The notes under the pieces: generated by a model | The model's input: only the letters and a program-made list of their open reading frames with translations | Told to the model about the DNA's origin: nothing | Database searches by the model: none | Shown: positions 50,846 to 54,179 of the stretch, piece by piece | Numbering within the stretch: the first letter of the stretch is position 1 | Layout of the letters: each line of letters starts with the position of its first letter | Made by a program: the position numbers and the translations under genes | Source: an uncultured Bacilli bacterium | GTDB taxonomy: Bacteria; Bacillota_I; Bacilli_A; RF39; UBA660 | Reading direction: 5' to 3' | Length of the DNA: 64,000 bases | Assembly: GCA_934130175.1 (NCBI GenBank) | Contig: CAKOXP010000004.1 | Location: 16,244 to 80,243, forward strand

Positions 50846-51784
50846 ATGGAAAATATAGAATATTGTGAAAGTATTAATTACTATAAAAATCAAAAATCGA
50901 ATATTCTTACTGCTGAAGAAGAAAGAGTTTTAATTATGCAAGCTTCCACCAATGAACAAGCAAGAGATAAACTTGTTCAAAGTAATATTCCATTCATTGT
51001 TTCGATAGCTAAAAAGTACAAAAATAATAACGTGACGTTAGATGATATAATACAAGAAGGAATTATTGGTCTTTTAATTGCAATCGATAGATTTGATATA
51101 AGTAACGAATGCAGATTACTTACCTATGCTGGACCATATATTAAAAAAAGCATTATTAATTTTCTTTCTGCTAATAGAACATTGAAAGTAGATACAAATT
51201 TATACTTTAAGATGAGAAAGTATGTAAGATTAAAAGAGTTATATAAAGAAAAATATAGAAGAACTCCATCAGATTCTGAAATGGCAAAAGAGTTGGATGT
51301 CACTATCTCGAAAATAAAAGACATAGAAAAGGCTTTAGTTGGTTTTGTAAATATTAATGATAAAATAAGAGAAGAGTGTGATGAAGAACTTGAAGAAATT
51401 ATTCCAAGCAACAGTGATTTGGTGGAAGATACAGTAATAGAATCTACATTAAAAGCAGAAGTAGAAAAACTATTTGAAGAAGTTGGTTTATCAGAACGAC
51501 AAAAAGATGTTCTAATTAAACATTGTGGACTAGACGGTAACAATAAGAAAACTTTTTTAGAAATTAGCAAAATATTAAATATTTCAAAAAGTAGGGTTGA
51601 ACAATTAGAATCTCAAGCAATTAAAAAAATAAGAAAGTCAAAACAAATTGATGATTTAGCAATATATCTAGATGACCCAATTCAAGCAGCAAAAAATCTT
51701 AGTGATTATCGTAAATTCTATATATTATCGAAAAATAAAACAAGAAAAATTAAGAATTTAGAAAAACTAAAATCAAAAATATAA
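50846..51784 (+). CDS. Sigma-70 family factor with SigA-like domain order (regions 1.2-4.2) but divergent region 2.3/2.4 and a C-terminal extension
   Basis: LTAEEERVLI (1.2), LVQSNIPFIVSIAKKY, DDIIQEGIIGLLIAIDRFD (2.1-2.2), LLTYAGPYIKKSIINFL (2.3-2.4), TLKVDTNLYFKMRKY (3.0) and ISKILNISKSRVEQLESQAIKKIR (4.2) are present. Confidence 0.8.
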   Translation: MENIEYCESINYYKNQKSNILTAEEERVLIMQASTNEQARDKLVQSNIPFIVSIAKKYKNNNVTLDDIIQEGIIGLLIAIDRFDISNECRLLTYAGPYIKKSIINFLSANRTLKVDTNLYFKMRKYVRLKELYKEKYRRTPSDSEMAKELDVTISKIKDIEKALVGFVNINDKIREECDEELEEIIPSNSDLVEDTVIESTLKAEVEKLFEEVGLSERQKDVLIKHCGLDGNNKKTFLEISKILNISKSRVEQLESQAIKKIRKSKQIDDLAIYLDDPIQAAKNLSDYRKFYILSKNKTRKIKNLEKLKSKI

Positions 51785-51807: not shown

Positions 51808-51834
51808 CGTGCTATATTTTTCTTGGTGATAGAA

Positions 51835-52614
51835 ATGACTGTCTACTTAGATTTAGTATTCTTTATTAATGTTTTCTTTGATTTTATATTACTTTATGGA
51901 ACTAAATACATCTTAAAAGAACATCCTAAATTTTATAGAATTGTTTTAGGAAGTCTAATAGGTGGAGGAAGTATTTTCTTTTTATTTTTAAATATTAACT
52001 CCTTAGAATTATTTATTCTTAAAATAATTATTAGTATCATGATGATTTTAACAACTTTTGGAAAAAATAATTTCTTTAAAACATATTTATATTTTTACAT
52101 AATAAGTATCTTTTTAGGAGGGTGTATGTATTTTCTTAACTATACATTTTCTTCTAAACATCAAGGATTAATCTTTTTTTCCAATGGACTATCAATTAAC
52201 TTTATTGTGATGCTGATACTTTCTCCTGTTATAGTCTATCTATATATAAAAGAATATAAAAACTATAAAATAGATGTTAATAATTATCATGATGTTACCA
52301 TTTATATCAGTAAGAATAAATATAATTTGAAAGGATATTTAGATACAGGAAATACTCTAACTGATCCTTACAAAAAAAGAGGAATAATTCTTATAAATTT
52401 AGATGAATACAAAATTTCAATAAAAAGTAAAAAAGTAATTTATGTTCCATATAAAACTATTACTGCTACAGGTGTTATTCCTTGTTACAGAATAGATAAA
52501 GTTTTAGTTGATAACAAGGAATTTAAGAATTTATTAATAGGAAATACTAAGAAAAATATAAAAATAGGAACAGCTAATTGTATATTACCAAATATAATTA
52601 AGGAGGATTTATAA
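51835..52614 (+). CDS. spoIIGA: Sigma-E processing aspartic peptidase SpoIIGA
   Basis: MTVYLDLVFFINVFFDFILLYGT is followed by five TM helices. The catalytic block GYLDTGNTLTDP corresponds to B. subtilis DSGN. The gene lies directly upstream of sigE. Confidence 0.88.
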   Translation: MTVYLDLVFFINVFFDFILLYGTKYILKEHPKFYRIVLGSLIGGGSIFFLFLNINSLELFILKIIISIMMILTTFGKNNFFKTYLYFYIISIFLGGCMYFLNYTFSSKHQGLIFFSNGLSINFIVMLILSPVIVYLYIKEYKNYKIDVNNYHDVTIYISKNKYNLKGYLDTGNTLTDPYKKRGIILINLDEYKISIKSKKVIYVPYKTITATGVIPCYRIDKVLVDNKEFKNLLIGNTKKNIKIGTANCILPNIIKEDL

Positions 52615-53306
52615 TGAAAAAATTTATTAATTTTATTAAAAGTTTATTCAGGAAAGTTGGAAATATTTTTTATGTAGGCGCAACTGATATTTTACCAGAA
52701 CCTTTAAGTAAAGAAAAAGAAGATTTTTATCTAGAATTACTTGAGGATGGAGATCAAAAAGCAAAAGATATTTTGATAGAACATAATTTAAGATTAGTAG
52801 TGTTTCTTTCTAAAAAGTACGAAAATACAGGAGTTGATTTAGAAGATTTAGTAAGTATAGGCACAATTGGATTAATAAAGGGAATTAATACATTTTCTAG
52901 AGGAAAAAATATTAAACTTGCAACATATGCATCACGTTGTATTGATAATGAAATATTAATGTATTTAAGAAAAACTAAGAAATTAAAGACTGAAGTTAGT
53001 ATTGATGCATCACTTTCATATGACTCTGAAGGAAATGAACTTCATCTAGAAGATGTTTTAGGAACAGATAAAGATATAGTTACAAAAGGAATAGAAGAAG
53101 AAAATGATAGAAAACTTATGCTTAATGAAGTTATGAGATTAAATCCAAGAGATAGAGATATTATTATTTTAAGATATGGTCTTATGGGACGTGAAGAACT
53201 TACTCAAAAAGAAGTTGCTGAAAAACTAGGGATTTCTCAGTCTTATATTTCAAGGATTGAAAAGAAGGTTATAAAAAGATTAAAGTCACTCGTTAACTAT
53301 ACTTGA
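52614..53306 (+). CDS. sigE: Sporulation sigma factor SigE precursor
   Basis: FYVGATDILPEPLSKEKE, NLRLVVFLSKKYENTGVDLEDLVSIGTIGLIKGINTF, KLATYASRCIDNEILMYLRK and GISQSYISRIEKKVIKRL align closely with B. subtilis pro-sigma-E, from memory. The gene is adjacent to spoIIGA. Confidence 0.92.
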   Translation: MKKFINFIKSLFRKVGNIFYVGATDILPEPLSKEKEDFYLELLEDGDQKAKDILIEHNLRLVVFLSKKYENTGVDLEDLVSIGTIGLIKGINTFSRGKNIKLATYASRCIDNEILMYLRKTKKLKTEVSIDASLSYDSEGNELHLEDVLGTDKDIVTKGIEEENDRKLMLNEVMRLNPRDRDIIILRYGLMGREELTQKEVAEKLGISQSYISRIEKKVIKRLKSLVNYT

Positions 53307-53332
53307 TTTTTTCATTCGGGGGGGGGTATAAT
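53303..53332 (+). promoter_or_regulatory. Putative promoter whose spacer contains a G9 homopolymer
   Basis: TTGATT (53303-53308), an 18-nt spacer ending in G9 (53318-53326), then TATAAT (53327-53332). The RBS AGGTGG and ATG 53367 lie downstream. Confidence 0.55.
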
Positions 53333-53366
53333 AGTCTTAGATATAGTAGAATAGGTGGTTTATAGG

Positions 53367-54179
53367 ATGAGAAAATCGGTCAAAATTACAATTATAATTG
53401 CAATGGTTGGATGTATTATTTCCATAAGTGGATCATATGCTGCCACAAATTACGTGATTAGCGCATCAAAAATTGGATATACAGATAATTCATCAATAGG
53501 TGCAGATAATGTTCAAGCAGCAATTGATGGTACTTGTACTAAGTTTTCTACTAAACTTAATAATATGATGGAACAGATGTATCCAATAGGAAGCATTTAT
53601 ATTACAACATCTATATCAGATTCTGATAAAGTCGCATCAACACTAGGAGTAGGAACATGGGAAGCATACGGAAAAGGAAAAACACTTGTAGGTGTAGATA
53701 AAAATGATAGTGATTTTGATACATCTGGAAAAACTTCAGGTTCTAAAACTGTCAAACTAGATAGTAAGAATATTCCTTCTATTACGTTTTCAGGTACCAC
53801 TGGTTCAACAGGTTCTGGTTATAGTATAGGCCATACCTGTGAAAATAGAGTCACTTCTACTGCAGGTGATCATACACACGCCTCTACAATAGGCGGTTCG
53901 TTCCTTATATTAGGAGGAAGTGTATCACATGCTCCTGCTTCTCAAGGTTTTGCATATAATACAAGTAGTGGTTGGTGGGTAAATCATAATAAGGCAATTG
54001 CTGGAATTGCTTCAGCCGGTAGTCACAACCATACAGCTACTGATTGCTATGCTTCAAGTATATCTGGTGTAGGAGCACATACACATACAATTAGTGCAAG
54101 TTACTCAAATACACAACAAACAGAAGTTAATATTATGAACCCTTATATAACAGTTTACATGTATAAAAGAACCGCCTAG
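53367..54179 (+). CDS. Secreted/anchored phage-tail-collar (tail-fibre tip)-like protein, orphan
   Basis: The signal/anchor is ITIIIAMVGCIISISGSYAA. ISASKIGYTDNSSIGADNVQAAIDG, YPIGSIYITTS...LGVGTWEAYGKGKTLVG...SGSKTVKLDSKNIPS and three GxHxH(T/A) motifs are present. The C terminus is NPYITVYMYKRTA. Confidence 0.7.
   Translation: MRKSVKITIIIAMVGCIISISGSYAATNYVISASKIGYTDNSSIGADNVQAAIDGTCTKFSTKLNNMMEQMYPIGSIYITTSISDSDKVASTLGVGTWEAYGKGKTLVGVDKNDSDFDTSGKTSGSKTVKLDSKNIPSITFSGTTGSTGSGYSIGHTCENRVTSTAGDHTHASTIGGSFLILGGSVSHAPASQGFAYNTSSGWWVNHNKAIAGIASAGSHNHTATDCYASSISGVGAHTHTISASYSNTQQTEVNIMNPYITVYMYKRTA

Follow-up and report, generated by a model that had tools for sequence, protein, structure and literature searches.

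A run of nine guanines lying between the two hexamers of a predicted promoter, immediately downstream of the sporulation gene sigE, is probably a slippage-driven contingency spacer for a gene of a putative surface-protein family, as judged from its sequence context and from comparison with its paralogues. The run was noticed in a 64-kb stretch of DNA with a G+C content of 27 %, the whole of which is referred to here as the window. In the proposed mechanism, a promoter read by the housekeeping sigma factor (sigma-A/sigma-70 type) would drive one gene out of a multigene family whose products are tail-fibre-head-like surface proteins, and the G9 would be the hypermutable portion of this promoter's spacer. 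Slipped-strand mispairing during replication would add or remove a G, shift the distance between -35 and -10 by 1 bp and thereby change the strength of the promoter, such that the cells of one population would differ heritably and reversibly in the family members that they express. With many paralogues switching, combinatorial surface variation would follow. From the sequence and its analysis, we infer that the segment 53303-53332 functions as a promoter, that expression depends on the length of its spacer, that switching occurs often and reversibly, and that it also takes place at the sigE locus itself.

The predicted promoter between sigE and the family gene

The family gene is preceded, in this order, by an ABC transporter, an extra sigma-70-family gene, spoIIGA and sigE, and is followed by tdk and ppdK. 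The open reading frames of spoIIGA and sigE abut at 52614, and their arrangement, the SpoIIGA protease followed by SigE, is that of the spoIIG operon. The coordinates of all features are listed in Table 1. The extra sigma-70-family gene, placed between the ABC transporter and spoIIGA, is shared by the window, L002-L006 and L008 and is missing in strain L001. L002 and L005 contain an additional open reading frame of 264 aa; the region looks like a strain-variable islet.

Reading of the sequence at 53303-53332 gives TTGATT-TTTTCATTC-GGGGGGGGG-TATAAT. This confirms the layout described in the first-pass annotation, namely TTGATT-N18-TATAAT with the G9 at 53318-53326, in an intergenic gap of 60 nt between the sigE stop codon and the next ATG (53367). 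The stop codon itself (TGA, 53304-53306) falls within the -35 hexamer of the following promoter. The same annotation had regarded the tract as the only G or C run longer than five in the window and as unlikely to be compositional noise, and both statements hold: the next longest runs are G5 (six of them) and C4, and the number of G runs of nine or more expected in the window is 0.005 under mononucleotide and first-order Markov models alike.

The promoter-like site is by itself unremarkable. Bare matches to the -35/-10 consensus number 38 in 4.5 kb as against 30 +/- 5 in shuffled sequences, as may be seen in AT-rich DNA, and the significance of the site therefore comes from its conservation across paralogues and species. 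The proposed placement of the tract between a -35 and a -10 element agrees well with this conservation, in that both putative hexamers are kept in 17 cassette copies of the window clade and in about 85 copies across the family, with the spacer between them varying. An Rfam scan of the window detected two tRNAs only, and no known RNA element in the 5' region of the gene.

The -10 consensus of sigma-F is G-rich, and a promoter for a sporulation sigma factor was accordingly considered; it was set aside because paralogues without the G run have a canonical TTGAC(T/A)-17-TATAAT at the same position.

Table 1. Positions of the predicted promoter elements and of the neighbouring genes in the window
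Feature	Position	Strand	Remarks
Extra sigma-70-family gene	50846-51784		312 aa; regions 2-4; RpoD-like; far under every NCBIfam cut-off
spoIIGA	51823-52614		Pfam Peptidase_U4, E 7.5e-42; directly 5' of sigE
sigE, sporulation sigma factor gene	52614-53306	+	Best NCBIfam matches are SigE equivalogs, 315 bits, slightly under the cut-off of 339
-35-like hexamer TTGATT	53303-53308	+	Unchanged in 17 window-clade cassette copies; TTGACA at the same position in rabbit and other clades
Whole promoter spacer, 18 nt	53309-53326	+	Final 9 nt all G
Non-G portion of the spacer, TTTTCATTC, 9 nt	53309-53317	+	Sequence varies among copies; length 8-12 nt, offset by the length of the G run
G9 homopolymer GGGGGGGGG, proposed slippage-prone part of the spacer	53318-53326	+	G7-G11 equivalents in 85 promoter copies
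-10 hexamer TATAAT, touching the G run	53327-53332	+	Unchanged in the window clade; TATAAT, TATTAT or TATACT in other clades
Predicted transcription start, 7-9 nt past the -10	53339-53341	+	Placed by the usual sigma-70 geometry
Ribosome-binding site AGGTGG, 8 nt 5' of the ATG	53353-53358	+	AGGTG(A/G) kept in the 5' UTR of the cassette
Family gene, 270-aa protein	53367-54179	+	N-terminal hydrophobic helix, conserved N-domain, T4 gp10 C-terminal-like domain, HxH motifs, hypervariable centre

The protein product and its multigene family

The product had been described as a secreted, tail-collar-like protein. This description is partly retained: the protein has an N-terminal hydrophobic helix and is tail-fibre- or collar-like, but its Pfam match is to Gp10_C (PF21939; E 2.8e-25, 90.3 bits against a gathering cut-off of 27) and not to the Collar family. 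Since the AlphaFold2 model is poor (pLDDT 62, pTM 0.22), probably because the protein is an obligate trimer, evidence for the fold was taken from a profile-to-PDB sequence search in place of a fold search on the model. The family profile matched 2fkk (T4 gp10) with an E-value of 6.7e-15, and also 5hx2; the product further matches PHROG tail-fibre and baseplate families, and the family alignment reveals a conserved C-terminal motif, PYITVYMYKR. The hydrophobic helix, predicted at residues 3-22 in the model, is a putative export signal or membrane anchor. Together with the tail-fibre-like domain and the hypervariable centre it may indicate surface exposure; hypervariability of this sort is typical of surface proteins under diversifying selection. 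Although the window protein contains the sequence MVGC, this cysteine is not conserved in the family alignment; as a conserved lipobox cysteine is lacking, the family does not belong to the Vlp lipoproteins and is only analogous to them. Scanning the 270-aa product against NCBIfam assigned it to no family and an exact-sequence look-up returned no record; the queries used for comparison were sigE and the family homologues.

A prophage origin of the gene was rejected, as viral contigs provide only five distant relatives of the collar domain, devoid of the N-terminal module and of G runs, and the gene is situated between sigE and tdk.

At least three alleles occur at the sigE locus (window 53367-54179, L001 3755-4609 and L089 1501-2277 were compared). 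They are only 25-45 % identical in the centre, as against 95-98 % in the flanking sigE and tdk, which suggests cassette replacement or gene conversion among paralogues. In L149, DUF4186 and His_Phos stand downstream in place of tdk. Several assemblies break inside the family gene at this locus.

Altogether 907 homologues were found, none of them named. A scan of one genome per species yielded 159 encoding stretches, nearly all from metagenome-assembled genomes (MAGs) of uncultured 'Bacilli bacterium' of rabbit and human gut. The number of copies per genome is high, with more than 25 loci in one rabbit MAG and at least seven in the human MAG HGM10839. The host genomes carry the sporulation genes spoIIGA, sigE, spoIIIAH, yabP, yqfD and gerE, which fit the uncultured sporulating orders of Bacilli discussed in PMC10868615. 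Copies of the family are repeatedly seen beside sporulation genes, namely sigE, rpsU-X-yabP-yqfD and efp-X-spoIIIAH-gerE-gerM (L098-L102, L107-L116, L133 and the window); this neighbourhood may be coincidental, the sporulating genomes being small, or may be a hint of a function connected with the spore.

In the family comparison, about 150 loci were fetched and 541 kb were scanned for G or C runs of seven or more. All 67 runs detected are on the sense strand of a family gene, and 66 of them are in its promoter cassette, which consists of TTGACA or TTGATT, 8-12 nt, the G run and then TATAAT, TATTAT or TATACT. Counting all fetched loci, 85 promoter copies comprise one G7, 11 G8, 49 G9, 18 G10 and six G11; runs of G12 occur at contig ends. 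The G run directly touches the -10 in 44 of 44 parsed copies, and a single T is present between the two in three window-clade cassettes (L098, L117 and L128). The coding sequences examined have no such tracts, all of which are in promoters. The poly-G spacer is thus family-wide and polymorphic in length, as a slipped-strand switch predicts, and each paralogue with a tract carries it in a promoter of its own, within a 5' cassette that is conserved, a feature of Vlp-type families.

Some loci differ in their arrangement. Family genes also form tandem arrays in which each gene has its own poly-G promoter, for example at L037 1118, 2013 and 3004 (G10, G11 and G9, respectively) and at L124/L125. Paralogues without the G run carry TTGACT-17-TATAAT about 100 nt 5' of the family gene, inside inverted or direct repeats that are specific to the copy (L014, L030, L041, L059, L061, L065, L066, L069, L075 and L081), such as TAGTCTA..TAGACTA, CGACAT..ATGTCG, AACACATGTGTT and ATCTGTAATACAGAT, and a divergent gene often adjoins them. 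Judged by sequence, each of these repeat-flanked promoters seems to be served by a repressor-operator pair of its own, which would be a second way of controlling genes within the family. In L035, L049, L053 and L063 of Lapin-028 bin25, the poly-G promoter is found 160-220 nt 5' of the family gene and is followed by a short degenerate open reading frame (MNKKLSKILIF...) resembling a truncated signal peptide.

Spacer geometry, tract length and competing explanations

The non-G and G portions of the spacer occur in the pairs (8,11), (9,10), (10,9) and (12,7), each of which totals 19 nt. As the two portions compensate for each other, the distance between -35 and -10 appears to be the constrained quantity. 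Poly-G spacers measure 17 nt in one copy, 18 nt in three, 19 nt in 24 and 20 nt in eight. Paralogues of the same genomes that lack the G run (TTGACT-17-TATAAT type) have spacers of 17 nt in 18 of 29 cases and of 18 nt in a further five; the difference between the two groups is significant by the Mann-Whitney test (p = 2e-8), the copies not being independent. Copies whose tract has decayed retain the same hexamers and 5' UTR, and their spacers are mostly 18 nt long. This is the length seen in L011, which has no G run, in L012 (GGGGTGGG), in the second copy of L010 (GAAGAGGGG) and in the P0079 lineage of seven assemblies (GAGGGAGGG); the decayed copies of the L124-L132 lineage (GGGGAG) have 16 nt, and the spacers with an interrupted tract, in L112 (GGGGAGGGG) and in the second copy of L023 (GGACGGA followed by G7), have 19 nt.

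On these grounds 17-18 nt would be the active geometry, and unbroken tracts would mostly rest one or two steps too long. The modal spacer of 19 nt is unusual for an active sigma-70 promoter and hence the assignment of particular lengths to the ON state is a guess. The window spacer has 18 nt, as do most decayed copies, and so probably represents an expressed state. It had been suggested that the loss of one G would give the optimal 17 nt; the 18-nt spacer on which this was based is correct, but 18 nt may already be the active length. At the sigE locus, G10 (19 nt, the mode of the family) would be expected to weaken the promoter and G8 (17 nt) to strengthen it.

Comparison of tract length among relatives, which the first-pass annotation had put forward as a check, gave a divided answer, positive elsewhere in the family and largely invariant at the sigE locus. 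At the efp-X-spoIIIAH locus, assemblies encoding an identical protein carry G8 (eight), G9 (two), G10 (two) or the interrupted GGGGAGGGG (one), and at another window-clade locus L104 has G10 and L150/L151 have G9 with identical flanks. The sigE locus has G9 in 19 assemblies, covering three alleles, and G8 in one contig of 1.8x coverage, and two other window-clade loci are uniformly G9 (5/5 and 7/7 assemblies). Many of the assemblies are from overlapping sample sets, mostly re-assemblies of the Hadza cohort, so that these counts are not independent. Length polymorphism is therefore real in the family, and the consensus at the sigE locus is stable. The differences at efp-X-spoIIIAH, between L104 and L150/L151 and in the one G8 contig of the sigE locus suggest that the tract is hypermutable; neutral slippage should nevertheless vary more than is seen at the uniform loci, and G9 itself may be selected.

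A competing explanation is that the G run would be a fixed promoter element and not a switch, kept for its sequence or structure or for the binding of a regulator, with changes of length as rare deleterious accidents. A rigid A-like G.C tract needing a 19-bp spacer would be one example. Considering both sides, we regard this explanation as unlikely, though it deserves to be taken seriously. In the window clade the G9 is nearly invariant over loci, alleles and assemblies while the adjoining 9-10 nt of the spacer have gained substitutions and indels; however, strains with an identical protein carry G8, G9 or G10, and the tracts of paralogues span G7 to G12. The total spacer is held at 19 nt, compared with 17 nt in ordinary promoters of the same genomes, and the tract touches the -10 in most copies of every lineage, apart from the few window-clade cassettes with one intervening T. 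Copies in which the G run has been replaced or interrupted nonetheless keep the -35, the -10 and the 5' UTR, which argues that the Gs are dispensable. The poly-T of M. agalactiae (PMC2268961) is a precedent for an element of this kind, yet runs of G9-G11 are intrinsically prone to slippage, and for a function that depends on fixed length an interrupted tract would be the better solution.

A further explanation, and an improbable one, is that transcription reaches the gene mainly from the spoIIGA-sigE operon, by read-through, and that the poly-G cassette is a remnant of the mobile 5' module of the family, with little effect at this locus. The overlap of the -35 with the sigE stop codon is in keeping with it, and no terminator is predicted between sigE and the family gene, the 36 nt across the junction folding at only -2 kcal/mol. 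The cassette at other loci opens with a terminator-like hairpin (-12 to -13 kcal/mol) and a U run behind it; the -35 is part of the 3' arm of this hairpin, and the 5' arm is missing from the cassette at the sigE locus. Read-through from the spoIIG operon may thus add to expression here, whereas at loci with the upstream hairpin the poly-G promoter would be the only evident source of transcription. Even so, the -35, G9, -10, 5' UTR and ribosome-binding site are intact and kept over three divergent alleles, and the tract shows none of the decay found in some other copies; moreover, read-through and an own promoter are compatible with each other. That the run could be a sequencing or assembly error, for instance the poly-G of two-colour Illumina chemistry, is effectively refuted by its recurrence across independent assemblies. 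Nine MAG contigs do end in the G run, and no fewer than seven others stop within 11 nt of such a run, but in over 80 copies, which derive from independent projects, assemblers and hosts, the tract lies inside the contig between the same conserved flanks. Its promoter position is always the same, and the terminal runs continue into genuine cassette sequence.

Conservation of TTGATT merely as the 3' arm of the terminator hairpin was rejected as the sole reason for its retention: the sigE copy keeps the hexamer without the hairpin, and TTGACA of other clades is outside any hairpin.

Assemblies of these genomes break repeatedly at the tract. The nine contigs that end inside the G run are L015, L027, L034, L039, L041, L044, L052, L071 and L077; such ends are expected if reads disagree or if the cassette is repeated, and are evidence neither way. 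Near contig ends, at L020 4911-4931 and L037 3004-3024, the G9 is followed by AGGCTGTCCGAG or AGACTGTCCGAG with no -10 hexamer, possibly reflecting chimeric contig ends.

Significance and relation to known systems

Promoter switches based on simple repeats are textbook examples in pathogens of the genera Neisseria, Haemophilus, Campylobacter and Mycoplasma, and phase variation of gut commensals is known mainly from methylation switches and from the DNA inversions of Bacteroidales. The proposed slippage-driven spacers and the allele differences may together constitute an undescribed, two-layer system of combinatorial surface variation in gut Bacilli related to Mollicutes, a proposal that we consider evenly balanced. 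In such a system, dozens of tail-fibre-head proteins would be toggled by their own poly-G spacers, resting one step from the active length, and whole alleles would additionally be replaced at fixed loci. Walled commensals of humans and rabbits would then have a counterpart to Mycoplasma Vlp, with immune (IgA) or phage pressure as its possible target. If true, homopolymer promoter switches would act on a large family of phage-derived, receptor-binding-like proteins in an uncultured, AT-rich, sporulating branch of Bacilli that is frequent in the guts of humans and rabbits, and the length of the G tract would serve as a marker for reading expression states directly from metagenomes. It would also explain the recurrent assembly breaks in these MAGs and link the antigenic variation of wall-less Mollicutes to their walled relatives.

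Phase variation through a homopolymer in the promoter spacer, on which the original proposal leaned, is indeed well documented. The slipped-strand mechanism is established for the poly-G spacer of porA in N. meningitidis (PMC3899988), and spacer tracts with the same mechanism are known for vlp of Mycoplasma, maa2 of M. arthritidis and vmm of M. mycoides (PMC2268961). As in porA (poly-G) and opc (poly-C), a G/C homopolymer here forms part of the spacer of a predicted sigma-70-type promoter, that of a gene for a putative outer surface protein. The present hosts differ in being Gram-positive-type, spore-forming, very AT-rich uncultured Bacilli with dozens of paralogues, each having its own tract; in addition, the tract touches the -10 (with a single T between in a few copies), and the spacer rests at 19 nt.

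In the vlp family of M. hyorhinis, the homopolymer in the promoter spacer of each gene switches transcription ON and OFF by slippage (PMC2268961, citing Citti & Wise 1995). Both systems consist of a multigene family of variable proteins, known in vlp and putative here to be at the surface, with a promoter tract for each gene, as do maa2 and vmm in kind, and in both the 5' cassette (promoter, UTR and signal peptide) is conserved and the body variable. The hosts, moreover, belong to the same broad lineage, the present Bacilli being related to Mollicutes. In contrast to vlp, maa2 and vmm, the tract here is poly-G and not poly-A or TA. Unlike in vlp, the products are not lipoproteins, the cysteine not being conserved, but contain phage tail-fibre-like domains; the copies are scattered among housekeeping and sporulation operons, besides the tandem arrays, and some family members rely on ordinary or apparently operator-flanked promoters.

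The poly-T of the vpma promoters in M. agalactiae calls for caution, as experiments showed it to have no role in variation, for which the Xer1 recombinase is responsible (PMC2268961). Like the vpma tract, the one described here is a homopolymer directly 5' of the -10, in the predicted promoter of a putative variable surface protein, and the vpma case warns that position alone is not proof. In contrast to vpma with Xer1, the family loci showed neither a recombinase nor an inverted-repeat switch.

Tracts of G8-G11 stand out in the AT-rich genome of Campylobacter jejuni and are concentrated in genes for surface structures. The tracts of the present family are similarly conspicuous in AT-rich genomes, but most of those in Campylobacter are intragenic and act through frameshifts, whereas all tracts here are in promoters. 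An example of a Campylobacter gene with a homopolymeric tract is given in PMC3068675.

The family shares with the C-terminal domain of phage T4 gp10 and with tail-fibre head domains its matches to PF21939, 2fkk/5hx2 and PHROG tail families, and differs from T4 gp10 in that the gene is chromosomal and single, lies between sigE and tdk and encodes an N-terminal hydrophobic helix. Literature searches retrieved no account of the family, nor of poly-G promoters in the Bacilli concerned. Within the literature searched, the mechanism is already known from the systems above, whereas its occurrence in this host group and gene family, on this scale and with a resting spacer of 19 nt, is undescribed.
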